IMG/VR virus record: IMGVR_UViG_2939521961_000002
DNA length: 47,124 bases
Direction: 5' to 3' (one strand)
Origin: a virus
Lineage: Duplodnaviria > Heunggongvirae > Uroviricota > Caudoviricetes
In this document: positions 2,641-20,712 of the stretch, piece after piece
Numbering within the stretch: the stretch's first letter is position 1
How the letters are laid out: the number at the start of each line of letters is the position of its first letter
The notes under the pieces: generated by a model
Seen by the model: the letters and a program-made list of their open reading frames with translations, nothing else
What the model was told of the DNA's origin: nothing
The model's database searches: none
Program-made: the position numbers and the translations under genes

Positions 2641-3321
2641 TCATCGCCATTGCTCCCCAAATACAAAACCAATTTCAGCCAGTGCCTCGTCCATTTTTTC
2701 GATGAACTCCGGCACCATCTCGTCAAAACTCGCCATGTACTTTTCATTCCGCTCAATCACGACATAATGCAGGCCTTCACGCTTCATGCGCGGGTCATAG
2801 TTGGCAAAGTACCAGGCATCTTTTCGCGTCACCCACATGCTGTACTGCACCTGGGCCATGTAAGCCGATTTTATTGCCTCGAAACCACCGAGCCGGAATT
2901 TCATGAAATCCCGGGAGGTAAACGGGCATTTCAGTTCAAGGCCGTTGCCGTCACTGCATAAACCATCGGGAGAGCAGGCGGTGCGCATACTTTCGTCGCG
3001 ATAGATGATCGGGGATTCAGTAATATTCACGCCGGAAGTGAATTCAAACAGGGTTCTGGCGTCGTTCTCGTACTGTTTTCCCCAGGCCAGCGCCTTAGCA
3101 TTAACTTCCGGAGCCACACCGGTGCAAACCTCAGCCAGCAGGGTGTGGAAGTAGGACATTTTCATGTCAGGCCACTTCTTTCCTGAGCGGGGCTTTGCTA
3201 TCACGTTGTGAACTTCTGAAGCGGTGATGACGCCGAGCCGTAATTTGTGCCATGCATCATCCCCCTGTTCGACAGCTCTCACGTCGATCCCGGTACGCTG
3301 CAGGATAATGTCCGGTATCAT
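2641..3321 (-). CDS. exo: Lambda exonuclease (Red alpha)
   Basis: 226-aa product matches phage lambda Exo from memory ([40 protein letters not shown]...GFVFGEQWR); overlaps bet stop as in lambda. Confidence 0.95.
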
Positions 3322-3842
3322 GCTGCCACCTTCTGCTCAGTGGCTTTCTGTTTCAGGAATCCAAGAGCTTTCACTGCTTCGGCCTGTGTCAGTTCTGACG
3401 ATGCGCGAATGTCGCGGCGAAATATCTGGGAACAGAGCGGCAATAAGTCGTCATCCCATGTTTTATCCAGGGCGATCAGCAGAGTGTTAATCTCCTGCAT
3501 GGTTTCATCGTTAACCGGAGTGATGTCGCGTTCTGGCTGACGTTCTGCAGTGTATGCAGTATTTTCGACAATGCGCTCGGCTTCATCCTTGTCATAGATA
3601 CCAGCAAATCCGAAGGCCAGACGGGCACACTGAATCATGGCTTTATGCCGTAACATCCGTTTGGGATGCGACTGCCACGGCCCCGTGATTTCTCTGCCTT
3701 CGCGGGTTTTGAATGGTTCGCGGCGGCATTCATCCATCCATTCGGTAACGCAGATCGGATGATTACGGTCCTTGCGGTAAATCCGGCATGAACCGCCCCG
3801 GAAATCCTGGAGACTAAACTCCCTGAGAAAGAGGTAAACAGG

Positions 3843-4169
3843 ATGACTAAAAATACTCGTTTTTCCCCCGAAGTCCGTCAGCGGGCGATTCGTATGGTTC
3901 TGGAAAGTCAGGATGAATATGACTCACAGTGGGCGGCAATTTGTTCCATTGCCCCAAAGATTGGCTGTACGCCGGAGACTCTGCGTGTCTGGGTTCGCCA
4001 GCATGAGCGGGATACCGGGGGCGGTGATGGTGGGCTCACCAGTGCTGAACGTCAGCGTCTGAAAGAGCTGGAACGTGAAAATCGTGAACTGCGCCGCAGT
4101 AACGATATCCTTCGCCAGGCTTCCGCTTATTTTGCGAAGGCGGAGTTCGACCGCCTCTGGAAAAAATGA
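3843..4169 (+). CDS. IS3-family transposase OrfA (HTH)
   Basis: 108 aa [30 protein letters not shown]...; leucine-zipper-like C-terminus; overlaps orfB by 4 nt at an A-rich site typical of -1 frameshifting. Confidence 0.85.
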
Positions 4170-5056
4170 TGCCACTGCTGGATAAGCTGCGTGAGCAGTA
4201 CGGGGTCGGACCGGTATGCAGCGAACTGCATATTGCCCCGTCAACGTATTACCATTGTCAGCAACAGCGACATCATCCGGATAAACGCAGTGCCCGTGCG
4301 CAGCACGATGACTGGCTGAAGAAAGAGATACAGCGCGTATACGATGAAAATCACCAGGTATACGGTGTGCGTAAAGTCTGGCGTCAGTTGTTACGGGAAG
4401 GTATCAGAGTGGCCAGATGCACTGTGGCACGTCTCATGGCAGTTATGGGACTTGCCGGTGTTCTCCGGGGTAAAAAGGTCCGCACTACCGTCAGCCGGAA
4501 AGCCGTTGCCGCATGCGACCGCGTAAACCGTCAGTTCGTGGCAGAACGTCCAGACCAGTTGTGGGTGGCTGATTTTACCTGGGTAAGCACATGGCAGGGC
4601 TTCGTTTATGTGGCGTTCATCATTGATGTGTTCGCCGGATACATCGTGGGATGGCAGGTCTCATCATCCATGGAAACAACATTCGTGCTGGATGCACTGG
4701 AGCAGGCGTTGTGGGCCCGTCGGCCGTCCGGCACAATCCATCACAGTGATAAAGGTTCTCAGTATGTATCGCTGGCCTACACGCAGCGGCTTAAGGAAGC
4801 CGGATTACTGGCATCAACAGGGAGTACTGGCGACTCGTATGACAACGCGATGGCTGAGAGCATCAATGGTCTTTACAAAGCGGAGGTAATACACCGTAAT
4901 AGCTGGAAAAACCGGACAGAAGTGGAACTGGCCACACTAACGTGGGTGGACTGGTATAACAATCGACGATTGCTGGAAAGGCTGGGCCATATTCCTCCGG
5001 CAGAAGCAGAAAAAGCTTATTATGCTTCCATCGGAAATAATGATCTGGCAGCCTGA
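4166..5056 (+). CDS. IS3-family transposase OrfB (DDE integrase core)
   Basis: 296 aa with DDE-type catalytic core (…WVADFT…HSDKGSQY…YDNAMAES…). Confidence 0.85.
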
Positions 5057-5421
5057 GTTCACAGATAAAATACTCTCCAGGAAACCCGGGGCGGTTCAGC
5101 ATGTACAGGATTCATTGTCCTGCTCAAAGTCCATGCCATCAAACTGCTGGTTTTCATTGATGATGCGGGACCAGCCATCAACGCCCACCACCGGAACAAT
5201 GCCGTTCTGCTTATCAGGGAAGGCGTAAATTTCTTTCGTCCACGGATTAAGGCCGTACTGGTTGGCGACGATCAACAATGCGATGAACTGCGCATCGCTG
5301 GCATCACCTTTAAATGCCGTCTGGCGAAGAGTGGTGATCAGTTCCTGTGGGTCGACAGAATCCATGCCGACACGTTCAGCCAGCTTCCCTGCCAGCGTTG
5401 CGAGTGCTGTACTCATCCGTT

Positions 5422-5718
5422 TTATACCTCTGAATCAATATCAACCTGGTGGTGAGCAATGGTTTCAACCATGTACCGGATGTGTTCTGCCATGCGCTCC
5501 TGAAACTCAACATCGTCATCAAACGCACGGGTAATGGCTTTTTTGCTGGCCCCGTGGCGTTGCAAATGATCGATGCATAGCGATTCAAACAGGTGCTGGG
5601 GCAGGCCTTTTTCCATGTCGTCTGCCAGTTCTGCCTCTTTCTCTTCACGGGCGATCTGCTGGTAGTGACGCGCCCAGCTCTGAGCCTCAAGACGATCCTG
5701 AATGTAATAAGCGTTCAT
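5422..5718 (-). CDS. gam: Gam (RecBCD inhibitor), short form
   Basis: 98 aa matches lambda GamS ([21 protein letters not shown]...[10 protein letters not shown]); the upstream in-frame region is diverged from lambda and closed by a stop at 5794..5796. Confidence 0.9.
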
Positions 5719-5793
5719 GGCTGAACTCCTGAAAATGGCTGTGAAAAAATCGCCCGCGGAATGCCAGGCTGATTCGGAAAACAGGAAAGGGGA

Positions 5794-6084
5794 TTAGTGA
5801 TTCAGAGCGTTGCCGCGTCCGTCGAGAAAAACTTCCACGAGCAAGTCACGGGTATAAGTGCGCTCAATGCCGCGATGCAGATAAAGTCGTCCGCGTAAAT
5901 TAGCTGATGCAGTCCAGGTACCATCTTTGCGTTTGACCAGCATTCCTGGCATGACTGCACCGCGATTAACGGTCTGCGTTCCGTAATGTTGATGAACCAT
6001 AAAAACTCCTGCCCGTAAGCTGGGCTGCTGAACATATAAAGACTTCTGCGCGTATTCAGGCGGTGGATGGCCGCCGGTTGTCAT
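5794..6084 (-). CDS. Hypothetical protein, first ORF downstream of putative pL (kil/cIII position)
   Basis: 96-aa ORF in frame with gam but separated by TAA; no family recognised; see finding on the in-frame Arg-rich upstream ORF. Confidence 0.35.
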   Translation of the reverse strand: MTTGGHPPPEYAQKSLYVQQPSLRAGVFMVHQHYGTQTVNRGAVMPGMLVKRKDGTWTASANLRGRLYLHRGIERTYTRDLLVEVFLDGRGNALNH

Positions 6085-6277
6085 AACTAAGCCGCCTCGT
6101 TGAAGCGACTAAGGTATGAAATGTTGAGTTGATTTCAGCTGGTCACACCGACGTTCACGCGTCCGTTTCATCCCTCGCACTCCCCGAAGCCTGCTGAAAT
6201 TCAAGCTGCGGATCTAAGCGGTCATCGCAACGGTGAATCAGGTGATTGCCGTATCGTTGTGTTGTTGCGATGAACTC

Positions 6278-6350
6278 ATTTAAAACTATAGTTGTTTTAT
6301 CGTCAACAACAAAAGTTGTTTTGTTGGTTGTTTTAGATATAACTGGTTGT
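6278..6350 (-). promoter_or_regulatory. Putative pL promoter with OL operator repeats
   Basis: On the minus strand TTGACG (plus 6301..6306), 17-nt spacer, TTAAAT (plus 6278..6283); three GTTGTTTT half-site repeats resembling the AACAACC motifs at OR. Confidence 0.35.
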
Positions 6351-6449
6351 ATTTAAGATGGATTTATTTTGTGACTTGCATCGCATAGCGATAACTGAAG
6401 CGAGGTCGTGGTGGTTTTTTTGAACGGTGTATGATGAGGGGAGGGCAAA

Positions 6450-6476
6450 AGAAAACCCGGCACGGTGGCCGGGTTT
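6450..6476 (-). terminator. Intrinsic terminator downstream of the cI-linked operon
   Basis: Hairpin CCCGGC-ACGGTG-GCCGGG flanked by A-run and T-run (AAAACCCGGCACGGTGGCCGGGTTT); followed by TTTT on the minus strand. Confidence 0.5.
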
Positions 6477-6550
6477 AGATGATTGGTTAAGAGCGAGGGT
6501 AATGGGGAATGAAAAATCGCTTTACCTAATGCAAGGGTGCGAGCATTTTC

Positions 6551-6994
6551 TTAAGCACTAAAGAAAAAGTACATTGATAGCTTATAAAGTCCTGTTCCTG
6601 CAGCGATGATTGCTGGAACACCAAGCAATACCGCAAGCTTTGCGTCTGAAATCTTTCTATCGACAGCATCACTTGATGGCTTGTTTGTTAAGGATTCTTT
6701 TATAGAGTCCAGACGTGCAAGAATAGTTATCATATTTTTGTCGATAGCTTTAACGTCTGTTTTAAGTTCATCAACGTCTCGTTTGATATGAGCAACATCG
6801 GACTCCAGTTTTGCAACTTTTTCAGGCATGTTATCACTCCCAGACCCACTGCTACCACTTGATTGTAGCATGTCCCATCTTTTTCCAGATATACCTGCTA
6901 GCTGGGAAGACGCACTGGAGTGCAAACAAAATGATTCTGCCGCCTTTGCAATTTTATCATTTAGGTTTGGAGCTTCGTAATAATCGTGTTTCAT
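6551..6994 (-). CDS. Hypothetical tail-anchored coiled-coil membrane protein (rexB position)
   Basis: 147 aa; Ser/Gly linker, heptad-like coiled coil (KVAKLESDVAHIKRDVDELKTDVKAIDKN...), single C-terminal hydrophobic helix (AKLAVLLGVPAIIAAGTGLY); 12 nt after upstream ORF stop, no clear SD (possible coupling). Confidence 0.55.
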   Translation of the reverse strand: MKHDYYEAPNLNDKIAKAAESFCLHSSASSQLAGISGKRWDMLQSSGSSGSGSDNMPEKVAKLESDVAHIKRDVDELKTDVKAIDKNMITILARLDSIKESLTNKPSSDAVDRKISDAKLAVLLGVPAIIAAGTGLYKLSMYFFFSA

Positions 6995-7006
6995 AATTAA
7001 TTACGA

Positions 7007-7270
7007 TTAGTTTGTTTTAGCTTTGTCATGCTGGTCGCGAATGAAGTCAGCCAATTTAAGCATCAATTCTTCGGGCATTCTAATGGTTGCAATGTTGTAC
7101 TTTATGTTCTCAACATCGTCACTTTCATCAACAGGCCATTCAGTTACATTATGAAAAAAAGAAATTGAACCTAGGCGCTGAGAGCCGTCACCAAACGAAG
7201 AGTAGCCAAACGCGTCGGCGTATGCATCGACACAGTTATTTGATTTTTTAACAAGTGTTTTATTACTCAT
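7007..7270 (-). CDS. Hypothetical small protein with C-terminal ribbon-helix-helix-like motif (rexA position)
   Basis: 87 aa; C-terminus IATIRMPEELMLKLADFIRDQ resembles an RHH beta-strand plus helix; AAAGG 5 nt upstream of ATG; 81 nt downstream of cI stop, same strand. Confidence 0.55.
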   Translation of the reverse strand: MSNKTLVKKSNNCVDAYADAFGYSSFGDGSQRLGSISFFHNVTEWPVDESDDVENIKYNIATIRMPEELMLKLADFIRDQHDKAKTN

Positions 7271-7351
7271 TTTTGCCTTTCCCGTAATGTTATTTTTTAT
7301 AAGGTATTTTCTTCAGCGTATTACCCAAAAGCCTCATCAACACGCGGCTGA

Positions 7352-8041
7352 TTATCCGTGTTTTCTGTACGTCTGCGGCATGCTCCCAATAACCTTACCG
7401 AATATGAATACCCGGTTCATCTCGTCTTTCTCGATAGGGTCCCACGGTGAGTAGCTCTTGTTATCAGAGATAACCAGCAGTTTATCCTTCATCATTTGCA
7501 GGCGCTTTACATGGGCGGTGTCGTCGTACAGAAATGCATAGATACCATCACCGTCGAAAGATTTAACCGTGATATCAACGAACAGCAGATCACCTGGTTC
7601 GATCGTTCCTGACATGCTGTCACCACGCACGTTAATGATGCGGATATTTTCTGCCTTCCTACCATCGAACATGTGACGAGCATCGTCAAACGAGTACTCA
7701 ACCGAGCGTAGAACTTCTACAAACTCACGGTTGATGACTCCCGGCCCAGCACTGACTTCTATATCAAGAACGTCAATCTTGAAGTATTTGGAATGGCTGA
7801 CAGTTGATTGTATTGGTTGCACTGTACTGTCTGACATATTTCCAACGCCAGAAGATAACCATTCTGCGCGCACACCCAAAGCGTTCGCGATCTCCACGAT
7901 TTTAGTTGTTTGATTAGCTTTCCCTGTTTCGATTTTCTGAATAGCAGCCTGGCTAACCCCGACCAAATCCCCAAGCGCCTTTTGTGTAAGGCCTCGCGCT
8001 AATCTGGCTTCTTTAAGTCTTTCTGAGAGTGTTGTTTTCAT
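7352..8041 (-). CDS. cI: cI-type repressor (N-terminal HTH, C-terminal LexA/S24-like self-cleavage domain)
   Basis: 229 aa from internal ATG (MKTTLSERLKEARLARGLTQKALGDLVGVSQAAIQKIETGK...); C-terminal ...NVRGDSMSGT...HVKRL... Ser/Lys dyad-like motifs; start lies at a leaderless-type PRM as in lambda. Confidence 0.85.
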   Translation of the reverse strand: MKTTLSERLKEARLARGLTQKALGDLVGVSQAAIQKIETGKANQTTKIVEIANALGVRAEWLSSGVGNMSDSTVQPIQSTVSHSKYFKIDVLDIEVSAGPGVINREFVEVLRSVEYSFDDARHMFDGRKAENIRIINVRGDSMSGTIEPGDLLFVDITVKSFDGDGIYAFLYDDTAHVKRLQMMKDKLLVISDNKSYSPWDPIEKDEMNRVFIFGKVIGSMPQTYRKHG

Positions 8042-8120
8042 AGTCCAAATGTACAACCAAGGTTTTATTCCATCAAACGAAAATGGTTGTTGACTAAAAA
8101 CAACCATAGTTTTAATCTTG
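8042..8120. promoter_or_regulatory. Immunity operator/promoter region (OR, PRM, PR)
   Basis: Palindromic operator ATGGTTGTT-N7-AACAACCAT (8083..8107); PR -35 TTGACT (8089..8094) with downstream -10-like TTAATC/TAATCT; PRM on the minus strand TTGATG (plus 8071..8076) - 17 nt - TACATT (plus 8048..8053) placing the start at the cI ATG. Confidence 0.55.
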
Positions 8121-8145
8121 ATTCAAATTAACCACGGAGGTTGTT

Positions 8146-8376
8146 ATGAACCCAGCTATCAAAACAGCGATCAATATCGTTGGTTCACAAAAGAAACTGG
8201 GCGCTGCCTGCGAAGTTTCACAGCAGGCCGTCTATAAGTGGCTTCACAACAAAGCAAAGGTATCCCCTGAACATGTCGGCAGCATTGTTACGGCTACTGG
8301 TGGAGTAGTGAAGGCATACCAGATTCGCCCGGATCTTCCGAAGTTGTTTCCACACACCGAAAAGAACGCAGCTTAA
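8146..8376 (+). CDS. cro: Cro-like HTH repressor (YdaS/Cro family)
   Basis: 76 aa; GGAGG 6 nt upstream; divergent from cI across the operator region; HTH GAACEVSQQAVYKWL. Confidence 0.7.
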   Translation: MNPAIKTAINIVGSQKKLGAACEVSQQAVYKWLHNKAKVSPEHVGSIVTATGGVVKAYQIRPDLPKLFPHTEKNAA

Positions 8377-8388
8377 ATTTCCATTTCA

Positions 8389-8400
8389 CGCTCTTTAACA
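8389..8400 (+). promoter_or_regulatory. boxA-like antitermination element (nutR position)
   Basis: CGCTCTTTAACA just downstream of cro matches the boxA consensus (CGCTCTTA; rrn-type GCTCTTTAACAA); no obvious boxB hairpin follows. Confidence 0.3.
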
Positions 8401-8445
8401 ATAAGCAATCAACTTAACAGTCAATTCAAACTAAAGGAGTCAATT

Positions 8446-8985
8446 ATGCAACCACTTCCATACCAACAGACTAGCGGATTTAGCCCGACTGCGGTGATAA
8501 ATCGTTCTCAAACAAAACAGGTGCCAGGCCACGAAAAAATCCGTGATGCCGTCCGCGCCTGGTCGGCTGTAGATAATCAGGATGTCGTTGCCACACTCAT
8601 TGTGAATGAGTATCGGGAGCAGGGCGGCGGCACCATCGATTTCCCTGATGATGTCAGCCGTACACGCCAGAAGCTGTTCCGCTTCCTCGATAACAAATTC
8701 GATTCTGAAAAATACCGAAATAACGTGCGTGAACTGACCCCGGCAATTCTGGCGGTACTACCGCTGGAATATCGCGGTTACCTGGTTGAGCAGGATAGCT
8801 TCATGGCTAGGTTGGCTGAAATGGAAAAGGAACTCAGTGAGGCAAAACAGGCTGTCATTCTCAACGCACCACGCCACCAGAAACTGAAGGAAATTAGTGA
8901 AGGTATTGTGTCGATGTTTCGTGTGGACCCAGAGCTGGCTGGTCCATTGATGGCGATGGTTACTACCATGCTGGGGGCGATATGA
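8446..8985 (+). CDS. Putative CII-like / YdaT-family early regulator
   Basis: 179 aa with strong RBS (AAGGAG); position equivalent to cII between cro and O; family assignment from weak recall only. Confidence 0.35.
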   Translation: MQPLPYQQTSGFSPTAVINRSQTKQVPGHEKIRDAVRAWSAVDNQDVVATLIVNEYREQGGGTIDFPDDVSRTRQKLFRFLDNKFDSEKYRNNVRELTPAILAVLPLEYRGYLVEQDSFMARLAEMEKELSEAKQAVILNAPRHQKLKEISEGIVSMFRVDPELAGPLMAMVTTMLGAI

Positions 8986-9071
8986 CAGGTTCAGAAATGG
9001 CGAAAGCCGGTCTGCTGGAACAGAACCGACTTTCAGGTGCAAATCGTAACACACTCATTGCGGGAGGAATT

Positions 9072-11759: not shown

Positions 11760-11819
11760 CTGTGCGTTGCCGCAAAATCGGCACACGGGATTGGCGTCCC
11801 GGACATCAAAACGACGCAT

Positions 11820-11840
11820 AACCGCGTTCGCGGTTTTTTT
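11820..11840 (+). terminator. Hairpin plus T7 run in the leader (possible attenuator)
   Basis: AACCGC-GTTC-GCGGTT followed by TTTTTTT, about 55 nt downstream of the putative promoter and upstream of the Bro-N start. Confidence 0.35.
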
Positions 11841-12003
11841 ATGCGCAGTGCACGTCTACACAAAAATTATGGTGGGCTGTGTGAGGGCTTCTTCGGAAGC
11901 GCCGGATTTCGTTTTGACCGGTTACGCCAACCTTGCACAGTCCACCACCAGTCGATTGGCGTCGTCGGTGGTGATAGCTCAAATTCAAAACGAGATTATC
12001 GCT

Positions 12004-15334: not shown

Positions 15335-15419
15335 AGTCAGAGATAACAATCAACTAATACTGTTTCGTTGATTTTTGCTTGTAATTGGCGTTCTGGTCTG
15401 ATTTTTGTGGAGTAAGTTG

Positions 15420-15803
15420 ATGCGTGATATTCAGATGGTTCTTGAGCGTTGGGGAGCGTGGGCGGCTAATAATCATGAAGATGTGACCTGGTCGTCCATT
15501 GCCGCCGGTTTTAAGGGATTAATTACTTCAAAAGTAAAATCTCGCCCGCAATGTTGTGACGATGACGCGATGATCATTTGCGGGTGCATGGCCCGTCTGA
15601 AAAAGAACAACAGCGATTTGCACGATTTATTAGTAGATTATTATGTAGTCGGTATGACATTCATGTCACTGGCAGGTAAGCATTGCTGCTCTGATGGTTA
15701 TATCGGGAAAAGGTTACAGAAGGCTGAGGGCATAATTGAAGGGATGTTAATGGCATTAGATATCCGGTTAGAGATGGATATCGTTGTTAATAACTCTAAT
15801 TAA
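15420..15803 (+). CDS. quuD: Late antiterminator Q (QuuD / phage-82-type)
   Basis: 127 aa [26 protein letters not shown]...; cysteine-rich zinc-binding region; matches DLP12 QuuD from memory. Confidence 0.85.
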
Positions 15804-19498: not shown

Positions 19499-20389
19499 TC
19501 AGGCTGCCAGATCATCGTTTCCGATGGAAGCATAATAAGCTTTTTCTGCTTCTGCCGGAGGAGTATGGCCCAGCCTTCCCAGCAATCGTCGATTGTTATA
19601 CCAGTCCACCCACGTTAGTGTGGCCAGTTCCACTTCTGCACGGTTTTTCCAGCTCTTACGGTGTATTACCTCCGCTTTGTAAAGACCATTGATGCTCTCA
19701 GCCATCGCGTTGTCATACGAGTCGCCTGTACTCCCTGTTGATGCCAGTAATCCGGCTTCTTTTAGTCGCTCCGTATAGGCCAGTGACACATACTGAGAGC
19801 CTTTATCGCTGTAATGGATGGTGCCAGACGGACGACGGGCCCACAACGCCTGCTCCAGCGCATCCAGCACGAATGTCGTTTCCATAGACGATGAGACCCG
19901 CCCCCCCACGATGTATCCGGCAAACACATCAATGATAAACGCCACATAGACGAAGCCCTGCCATGTGCTGACGTAAGTAAAATCAGCCACCCACAGCTGG
20001 TCAGGACGTTCTGCCACGAACTGACGGTTTACGCGGTCACCTGTGGCAACGGTTTTCCGGCTGACGGTAGTGCGGACCTTTTTACCCCGGAGAACACCGG
20101 CAAGTCCCATAACCGCCATGAGGCGCGCCACTGTACATCTGGCCACCCTGATTCCTTCCCGTAACAACTGACGCCAGACTTTACGCACACCGTACACCTG
20201 ATGATTTTCATCGTATACGCGCTGTATCTCTCTCTTCAGCCAGTCATCGTGCTGCGCACGGGCACTGCGTTTATCCGGATGATGTCGCTGTTGCTGACAA
20301 TGGTAATACGTTGACGGGGCAATATGCAGTTCGCTGCATACCGGTCCGACCCCGTACTGCTCACGCAGCTTATCCAGCAGTGGCATCAT
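19499..20389 (-). CDS. IS3-family transposase OrfB, copy 2
   Basis: 296 aa; near-identical to 4166..5056 product with several substitutions. Confidence 0.85.
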
Positions 20390-20712
20390 TTTTTCCAGAG
20401 GCGGTCGAACTCCGCCTTCGCAAAATAAGCGGAAGCCTGGCGAAGGATATCGTTACTGCGGCGCAGTTCACGATTTTCACGTTCCAGCTCTTTCAGACGC
20501 TGACGTTCAGCGCTGGTGAGCCCACCATCACCGCCCCCGGTATCCCGCTCATGCTGGCGAACCCAGACACGCAGGGTCTCCGGCGTACAGCCAATCTTTG
20601 GGGCAATGGAACAAATTGCCGCCCACTGTGAGTCATATTCATCCTGACTTTCCAGAACCATACGAATCGCCCGCTGACGGACTTCGGGGGAAAAACGAGT
20701 ATTTTTAGTCAT
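20386..20712 (-). CDS. IS3-family transposase OrfA, copy 2
   Basis: 108 aa identical in length to 3843..4169 product. Confidence 0.85.

Follow-up and report, generated by a model that had tools for sequence, protein, structure and literature searches.

The window analysed here, the whole 47,124-nucleotide (nt) stretch recorded in IMG/VR as IMGVR_UViG_2939521961_000002, is a lambdoid prophage of E. coli. The present work concerns the segment of about 270 nt that separates its putative leftward early promoter, pL, from kil, the gene of a cell-division inhibitor (Table 1). An earlier note on this DNA had observed that no N-sized gene follows pL and had suggested, as a speculation, that an N-like antiterminator gene carrying an amber codon could occupy this place. 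The facts on which the suggestion was built were all correct. No N-sized gene lies between the promoter-like site and position 6084. On the minus strand, the ATG at 6171-6169 opens the arginine-rich frame MKRTRERRCDQLKSTQHFIP, which is followed by a TAG at 6111-6109, by eight sense codons (SLQRGGLV) and by the ATG at 6084 that opens a 96-amino-acid (aa) open reading frame (ORF) ending at 5794, all of them in one frame. A single stop in 71 codons is ordinary, as 17% of shuffled sequences have at most one.

Table 1. Features of the pL-kil locus and of its surroundings, in positions of the window
Feature	Position	Strand	Description
Putative pL	6278..6306	minus	-35 TTGACG 6306-6301, 17-nt spacer, -10 TTAAAT 6283-6278
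pL-kil leader	6001..6271	minus	about 270 nt, apparently non-coding
5'-terminal stem-loop	6223..6272	minus	CAUCGCAAC (6272-6264) pairs with GUUGCGAUG (6231-6223), C/A-rich loop AACAACACAACGAUACGG... (predicted fold)
Middle segment	6125..6222	minus	branched stem 6220-6176; hairpin GACG-CGUGAA-CGUC 6163-6150 (predicted)
Short Arg-rich ORF	6109..6171	minus	20 codons and TAG; extendable to TTG 6204 (31 codons)
Hairpin III	6082..6118	minus	15 pairs, loop AAC
Hairpin IV	6059..6075	minus	GGCGG-CCAUCCA-CCGCC, near-invariant, loop included, across lambdoid phages
kil	5794..6000	minus	68 aa (MVHQHYG...), FtsZ/cell-division inhibitor, phi80/Rac KilR type
Weak terminator-like hairpin with T-run	5752..5769	minus	between kil and gam
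Intrinsic terminator	6476-6453		left of the two accessory genes
Operator/promoter region	near 6300		past the terminator; followed leftward by kil, gam, bet, exo, xis, int
LexA-type repressor gene	7352-8107	minus	followed leftward by two accessory genes
cro	8146-8376		rightward arm; followed rightward by a YdaT/CII-like gene, replication genes O and P, the IsrK/C4/Ant module, nin genes and the Q-like antiterminator
boxA consensus, perfect	8389..8401	plus	CGCTCTTTAACAA, 13 nt past the cro stop (nutR position)
Q-like late antiterminator	15405..15803	plus	PHROG phrog_79 match, expectation value (E) 4e-53

The 96-aa ORF exists, but as a gene it is over-extended, kil beginning at ATG 6000. Kil is most likely translated from this codon. 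The ATG is preceded by a Shine-Dalgarno (SD) sequence, AGGAG (6010-6006), located 3' of a small GCCC/GGGC hairpin (6025-6011), and residues 1-68 of Kil align with positions 13-80 of the 83 positions of the PHROG model phrog_294 (E 3e-36). A 207-nt kil encoding a 'phage encoded cell division inhibitor protein' is annotated in RefSeq, and the orthologues from Kluyvera, Citrobacter, Enterobacter, Silvania, Pseudocitrobacter and phage HK225 begin MV(H/N)QHYG behind an SD sequence of their own. The leaders of the Kluyvera/Citrobacter/Enterobacter-type kil genes are shorter and different, and likewise lack N. When the upstream frame was joined to kil, the longest ORF obtained was 136 aa (from TTG 6204), of which only residues 60-136 match a family in Pfam and PHROGs, and this family is Kil. 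The calls of 96-139 aa that databases carry under the name Kil are probable over-extensions of the 68-aa gene.

The putative pL is embedded in operator-like GTTGTTGAC...AACAAC repeats, and transcription would start at about 6271. A simple consensus promoter scan left this promoter uncalled because position 2 of its -10 element is a T. Nevertheless, the pL annotated in phi80 (TTGACC-17-TTTAAT, then CCATCG) and that of phiEt88 are co-linear with it, and its layout mirrors that of the pR region (8088-8120). Phages that differ in immunity and operators become homologous from about 6271 onwards, the position expected for the transcript start.

The leader is widespread. Bases 5990-6275 (286 bases) were found in 2231 of 5426 complete E. 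coli genomes (41%), mostly at 95-99% identity, and the leader is present in 16 sequenced phages; the closest sequenced phages are Bievrevirus 4A7, Lambda_4C10, Perceval, IdasGreatGrand and the PhiR series. Its 5' end is predicted to fold into a stem-loop in which the recurrent variants at 6272, 6271 and 6269 retain pairing through G-U. The same opening, CAUCG followed by a C/A-rich stretch, recurs in the pL transcripts of phi80, HK225, HK639, phiEt88 and Kluyvera/Citrobacter prophages, where it is followed by nutL, by putL or directly by kil. The middle segment matches the same 16 phages only among 50,697 phage records, except for its last bases near 6125, which belong to a shared module described below. 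The predicted hairpin GACG-CGUGAA-CGUC of this segment contains the codons that would read RTRERR. Over the whole leader the density of variants is 0.22 per nt, compared with 0.75 at the synonymous positions of kil. The 118 positions predicted to be paired carry 20 variants and the 160 unpaired ones carry 67, a variation 2.5 times lower in stems than in loops. Of the eight recurrent variants located in stems, seven preserve pairing, and nearly all of the variants that break a pair are singletons. In these respects the leader resembles an RNA under constraint more than it does a coding region. No Rfam family was detected in it, either at E up to 10 over positions 5000-9000 or at gathering thresholds over the whole window.

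A separate observation concerns the C/A-rich loop of the 5' stem-loop. The R1 seed of GcvB, a small RNA (sRNA) of the host, is G/U-rich, and the sequence GCAACAACACAAC... (6226-6269, minus strand) is complementary to it. The predicted duplex reaches -36.4 kcal/mol, compared with -26.3 +/- 4.0 kcal/mol for shuffled sequences, and 9 of 1308 tiles of the window score as well. The loop could be a GcvB target or a sponge, as AgvB is, or merely a C/A-rich enhancer. The AgvB-type anti-sRNA is a different element, since AgvB sits near PR' and not near pL, and a paper on the Pas sRNA had no bearing on the leader.

The 3' part of the leader carries a module of two hairpins, called here III and IV. In an alignment of nine phages, this module has the constant order CAUACC, covarying hairpin (III), UUAGUUAUGA and GGCGG-CCAUCCA-CCGCC (IV). 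Hairpin III contains the TAG at 6111-6109 and the eight 'codons'; both ATG 6084 (6084-6082) and the GAGG that would be its SD sequence lie within the stem. In the alignment, 97.8% of the cells are paired and 7 of the 15 pairs are changed on both sides, as illustrated by GUCGC/GCGGC, GCAAC/GUUGC, GGCAGA/UCUGCC and ACGGG/CCUGU. None of 500 shuffles reached the observed values, and slid partners pair in only 31-51% of cases. Moreover, the 67 distinct versions of hairpin III present among 243 loci all fold alike. The T/C polymorphism at 6111, which makes or removes the TAG, is structurally neutral because T6111 faces U6089 in a 1x1 mismatch. The common variants G6092A and C6107U keep the hairpin paired, and would be non-synonymous if the segment were read as protein (G to D and S to L, respectively). 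The amber codon invoked for an N-like gene, the codons behind it and the start codon that follows are thus all elements of a covarying RNA hairpin, within which the decisive base is unpaired.

Sequence homologous to positions 6124 to about 6059 is common to HK225, a prophage of E. coli AW1.7, phi80, HK639 and phages of Enterobacter, Klebsiella and Salmonella. In phi80, the module directly follows N and the rho-independent terminator tL1A, and lies upstream of the annotated rho-dependent terminator tL1B. Hairpin IV is annotated as 'terminator' in HK639, and the tL1 region of the phi80 record M11919 begins with it; in the window this hairpin is not followed by a U-tract. In most contexts other than the window type, the module has a G+C hairpin and a T-run immediately 5' of it. 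In the window type, the module is preceded by ...CAACTCAACATTTCATACC, and no terminator was found there by a terminator scan or in the comparison of the 243 loci. No second copy of hairpin IV is present in the right operon of the window, and the cro-cII spacer of phi80 is too short to hold one. The two-hairpin module is thus widespread in lambdoid phages at the tL1 position, has no Rfam family and is a candidate regulatory RNA.

Some further occurrences of hairpin IV and of similar structures should be mentioned. Three database proteins fuse the frame 'MTTGGH(PPPE)' located at hairpin IV (about 6059-6080) to bet, to gam or to a downstream gene, and independent prophage deletions seem to share an end-point at or beside the invariant GGCGGCCATCCACCGCC hairpin. 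In the cro-cII spacers of three loci of other immunity types (L002, L005 and L007), a G+C hairpin (CUGCCGCC-loop-GCGGCG or GGCGGC) without U-tract replaces boxA. In one of them, L007, a 13-mer, CCGGCGGCCAT, is common to the cro-cII spacer and to the left-operon hairpin IV of the same prophage.

To examine the Arg-rich frame in relatives, sequences were gathered from IMG/VR, metagenomes, phages and genomes, which yielded 84 and later 96 distinct sequences; one locus (L055) was left out as a chance 21-mer match. The codon at 6111 is CAG in 76 of the 96 distinct relatives and TAG (T6111) in the other 20, and the codon at 6171 is GTG in 81 and ATG in 15. Because CAG is also found in HK225 and in other phages sharing the stretch, the TAG is a derived C-to-T change. 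The presence of a sense codon in most relatives had been proposed as a check and, taken alone, agrees with the N-like gene. The rest of the comparison does not. The upstream frame is disrupted in relatives by a 2-nt deletion (6047-6046), other indels, a stop or a 37-nt duplication, while kil stays intact. In kil, 51 synonymous and 23 non-synonymous variants were counted, and the synonymous fraction was 69% in frame versus 16-18% out of frame. The corresponding fractions were 41% in frame versus 45% and 23% in the other frames for region 6213-6112, and 25% versus 21% and 29% for the linker 6108-6001, where no frame-specific excess exists. In the first of these regions, that of the Arg-rich ORF, synonymous variants amounted to 9 of 22 in the frame of the ORF and to 10 and 5 of 22 in the others. 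Unlike kil, the sequence 5' of position 6000 has no clear coding signature. In the linker, conservation of the coding type is absent; in the Arg-rich part, the picture is less clear, owing to a frequency-weighted excess carried by about three sites that is considered below.

Searches for homologues of the encoded peptides gave no support to an N gene either. Comparison of the joined and of the upstream sequence with Pfam and PHROGs returned no match to N, in line with the caution already expressed about a lack of resemblance between the 96-aa ORF and lambda N. A tblastn search with the Arg-rich peptide against the 50,697 phage records retrieved the same 16 phages only and no N gene, and a collection of 5.8 billion proteins contained the peptide at this locus only. 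The Arg-rich ORF is seldom called by gene callers. With a joined product that lacks similarity to N and ends in the 68 residues of Kil, with a linker devoid of codon-type conservation and with a frame that is broken in various ways in relatives, the amber-interrupted N-like gene is not supported.

Taken together, these results lead us to consider it probable, though well short of certain, that the segment from 6271 to 6001 is the non-coding, highly structured 5' leader of a pL transcript of which kil is the first gene. The comparisons establish that the locus has no N gene, that clear coding-type conservation is missing upstream of kil, that a covarying hairpin is present and that the leader is constrained at the nucleotide level. 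The short Arg-rich ORF is probably not a gene; it would most likely be a by-product of a G+C-rich, CGN-rich hairpin sequence. The leader itself may be regarded as a mosaic, composed of the 5' stem-loop, of about 100 nt specific to this group of phages and of the two-hairpin module that is found elsewhere after the first intrinsic terminator. Relative to phi80, such a mosaic would describe a phage type that is without the entire nutL-N-tL1A cassette and not merely without a functional N.

Several observations weigh against this interpretation or limit it. Because the relatives are close, mostly 95-99% identical, the constraint estimates rest on few events, and the stem variants of the E. coli set are single-sided G-U changes without double compensations. 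The leaders of Kil relatives from other genera differ, so that the unique middle segment offers no covariation. A C-rich, G-poor composition is confined to the first 30-60 nt, which makes a Rho loading site plausible but not obvious. The other points concern translation. Among the first 84 distinct relatives collected, 52 (about 62%) have the 71 codons 5' of kil open, although a fully open frame of this length is mildly unusual and is reached by only 3.9% of shuffled sequences, and a 139-aa Kil is annotated in one curated phage record (Perceval). When variants are weighted by frequency, 65% of the occurrences in the Arg-rich frame are synonymous versus 24% and 12% in the other frames, and the three commonest polymorphisms of the ORF (6187, 6166 and 6121) are synonymous third-position changes. 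The ATG/GTG polymorphism at 6171 retains a start codon, and an SD-like GGGGAG (6186-6181) is found 9-10 nt upstream of it.

The weighted synonymous excess, the two interchangeable start codons and the SD-like motif count in favour of translation of the Arg-rich frame over 20-31 codons, either into a micro-peptide or as a regulatory upstream ORF that would modulate Rho access or leader folding. We consider this unlikely. The weighted excess rests on about three sites and constitutes weak evidence only, and no preference for the frame appears when variants are counted singly. Non-synonymous variants (R to C, R to W, S to L and Q to R) and a frameshift allele are known in the Arg-rich region, homologues were not found outside the locus in the peptide searches, and the arginine codons of KRTRERR coincide with the predicted hairpin.

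The open frame in most relatives, the annotation of a long Kil in Perceval and in several PhiR phages, and the ancestral CAG shared with HK225 and other phages would fit a different possibility, namely that relatives translate from GTG/ATG 6171, or from further upstream, into kil to give an isoform of 125-139 aa with an Arg-rich N-terminal extension, the window then being a nonsense allele that makes the 68-aa form only. This too appears improbable. About 30% of the distinct relatives have a stop or a frameshift, at various places, with kil intact in all of them. The extension is missing from the kil genes of other genera, of HK225 and of phi80, and kil has a strong SD sequence of its own. In addition, the linker shows no frame-specific synonymous excess and is occupied by the covarying hairpin, the changes of which would be non-synonymous.

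If the leader is indeed non-coding, the means by which early transcription proceeds has to be considered. The earlier note had offered, as an alternative to N, that the phage relies on Q only or on an RNA-based system. As to Q, no antitermination protein other than the Q-like one could be recognised in the window, and in the curated annotation of the relative Perceval, Q is listed and N is not. An RNA of the HK022 put type, by contrast, was not detected. A covariance model was built from five sequences (putL and putR of HK022 and of phiEt88, and putL of HK639) and run on the whole window with filters off. Its best match, 10.5 bits (E 0.33), lies at the unrelated positions 2171-2196, and nothing was retrieved in 6000-6300 or 8370-8450; no similarity of the leader to putL or putR was obvious by eye. 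N-less lambdoid phages are already known, and one of them has been noted together with a speculation on put (PMC12315714).

The region after cro was compared with the leader in the same context. The perfect boxA is tied to this immunity type only, as the cro-cII spacer of 4A7-type relatives that have the same pL leader is devoid of boxA and the same leader accompanies several unrelated cro-cII spacers. No boxA is present in the pL leader, and no boxB-type hairpin common to both operons was found. On either side of the boxA after cro, two motifs (8367-8381 and 8407-8419) match CGCAGCTTGAATTTC and AATCAACTCAACA of the leader, which stand around the middle segment. These motifs, CGCAGCTT(A/G)AATTTC and AATCAACT(T/C)AACA, occur in the same order at 8367-8419 on the plus strand and at 6210-6128 on the minus strand, with a spacing of 40 nt after cro and of 76 nt in the leader. 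Their collinearity suggests common ancestry or a common site in both early operons of this immunity type.

Processive antitermination by the RNA itself, in which the leader and especially its first 150 nt or so would be a new cis-acting, put-like antiterminator replacing N and nutL, has to be weighed against these data. The leader starts at the 5' end of the transcript, as putL does, and is constrained and structured. The operator/promoter module is related to that of the Erwinia phage phiEt88, in which putL follows pL and putR follows cro; their location at the corresponding places indicates that the slot exchanges antitermination elements. Terminator-like sites exist in both early operons, those of the left operon including 2580-2558 and 1985-1967 besides the hairpin between kil and gam, which we take to be homologous to the region upstream of the short form of lambda Gam, and no N gene is present. 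Still, the put model was negative, no second copy of the leader was found anywhere in the window, including after cro, and the leader travels with unrelated cro-cII spacers. In Kluyvera, Citrobacter and Enterobacter, moreover, the relatives have short, different leaders and also lack N, so that a left operon devoid of N can apparently dispense with this RNA. We view antitermination by the leader as unlikely.

A last possibility, that the arginine codons represent what is left of the 5' end of an ancestral N gene, the remainder having been lost as far as the tL1A U-tract near 6124, is very improbable. In its favour, the codons occupy the place expected of the N terminus of N, their product KRTRERR is similar to the motif TRRRERR of lambda N, homology with the phi80-type module breaks at '...TTTCATACC', exactly past the terminator T-run of other phages, and GACG-CGUGAA-CGUC can be aligned with the phi80 'nutL core' CACGUAAACGUG. 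However, this last alignment, made with the phi80 leader and N gene, is not significant (score 23 versus 21.8 +/- 3.3 in shuffled sequences), a similar peptide opens no N gene in the 50,697 phage records, no boxA precedes the arginine codons in the leader, the phi80 N protein has no such N terminus, and Arg-rich strings are of low complexity and readily arise from CGN-rich hairpins. This candidate was rejected.

Coming back to the non-coding leader, its role would be exerted in cis on the pL-kil transcript. Our guess is that, by Rho-dependent attenuation, by RNA processing or stability, or by both, it may limit or time how the toxic Kil, and the gam-bet-exo genes that follow, are expressed. 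Attenuation or processing is favoured because Kil is toxic, because the kil gene of Rac is silenced by Rho and because tL1B of phi80 is annotated downstream of the homologous module; as a specific mechanism, however, it is proposed with low confidence, and the dissimilarity between the leader and that of Rac weighs on it. In Rac, kil is kept silent by a Rho-dependent terminator located upstream of it (PMC10980228, PMC4150792), and the 5' untranslated region of kilR carries an annotated sRNA, KilS (PMC8175672). Early transcription of the window type would then need no N, and the late genes would depend on Q.

The conserved two-hairpin RNA module without Rfam family and the group-specific leader segment are new. 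A bolder proposal is that the leader or the module is an undescribed cis-acting RNA device of N-less phages of the DLP12/Bievrevirus type, which would regulate how the pL transcript is elongated, terminated or processed in phages that use no antitermination protein of their own for it; we think this unlikely. Among the forms that such a device could take are a new antiterminator RNA, an anti-Rho RNA and a processing switch governing the toxic kil. Whatever its exact role, the present analysis removes the tempting mis-annotation of an 'amber N gene' and describes a very common type of E. coli prophage in which the nutL-N-tL1A cassette is lost and a constrained, structured leader is kept before a toxic gene. 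For the module, Rho attenuation, RNase processing and antitermination are candidate routes. The question gains in relevance because Kil expression underlies the toxicity of bicyclomycin and of Rho inhibition in Rac lysogens.

Other elements of the window deserve a brief description. Just upstream of pL, in the region 6453-6495 (minus strand), a lambda-type boxA-like CGCTCTTAACCAA lies 6 nt 5' of the strong terminator hairpin that closes the transcript of cI and the accessory genes; a faint similarity to the Rfam family IsrJ, below threshold (21 bits, E 1.2), was also noted there. An insertion sequence of the IS3 family is present in two copies (3843-5056, plus strand, and 19499-20712, minus strand), the first of which splits the bet recombinase gene of the left operon into fragments 3318-3737 and 5096-5416, so that the prophage is probably recombination-defective. 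Each copy contains an ALIL frameshift pseudoknot detected with Rfam (4124-4240 and 20315-20431). In the right operon, gathering-level Rfam matches to IsrK (11768-11840, 64 bits) and to the C4 antisense RNA (11865-11952, 82 bits), both on the plus strand, are found directly 5' of, or overlapping, the start of an anti-repressor (Ant) gene, the Ant-like ORF extending to 12612. This region looks like a P1/P7-type c4-ant module or a Gifsy-1 isrK-anrP-like module within the pR operon, and because of the IsrK and C4 RNAs that precede Ant, the 281-aa ORF starting at TTG 11767 is over-extended. Finally, a full-length match to the Rfam family IS009 (228 bits) is located at 46883-47081 on the plus strand, near the right end of the window.

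The pL-kil region of the window can be compared with four known systems. It shares with the N/nutL system of lambda an ORF just downstream of pL, an Arg-rich string near the N terminus of this ORF and a boxA after cro. Unlike lambda N, the ORF has 20 codons instead of about 100, without profile similarity or clear coding conservation, and the left operon has neither boxA nor a boxB hairpin in common with the right one. With HK022 put, the leader has in common a structured RNA formed from the 5' end of the pL transcript of an N-less lambdoid phage, at the place where phiEt88 has putL; it differs by its length (about 270 nt compared with about 70 nt), by the negative result of the covariance model and by the lack of a right-operon copy. 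The kilR leader of Rac is similar in being a long untranslated region of a prophage, and the toxic gene that it precedes encodes an FtsZ inhibitor of the same family. This leader has no sequence similarity to that of the window, its terminator is located further upstream, inside racR, and, with regard to KilS, no intrinsic terminator that would release a short RNA was found in the window's leader by the terminator scan. The closest parallel is phi80, with the order pL, nutL, N, tL1A, tL1B and kil. The window is without the boxA and core of nutL, the N gene and the tL1A hairpin, in place of which it has about 100 nt of unrelated sequence, and its kil comes directly after the module. The two phages nevertheless have the same promoter architecture and the same CAUCG and C/A-rich transcript opening, the sequence at 6124-6059 is homologous to that directly following N and tL1A in the 'tL1' region of M11919, and a kil gene of the same family lies downstream in both.

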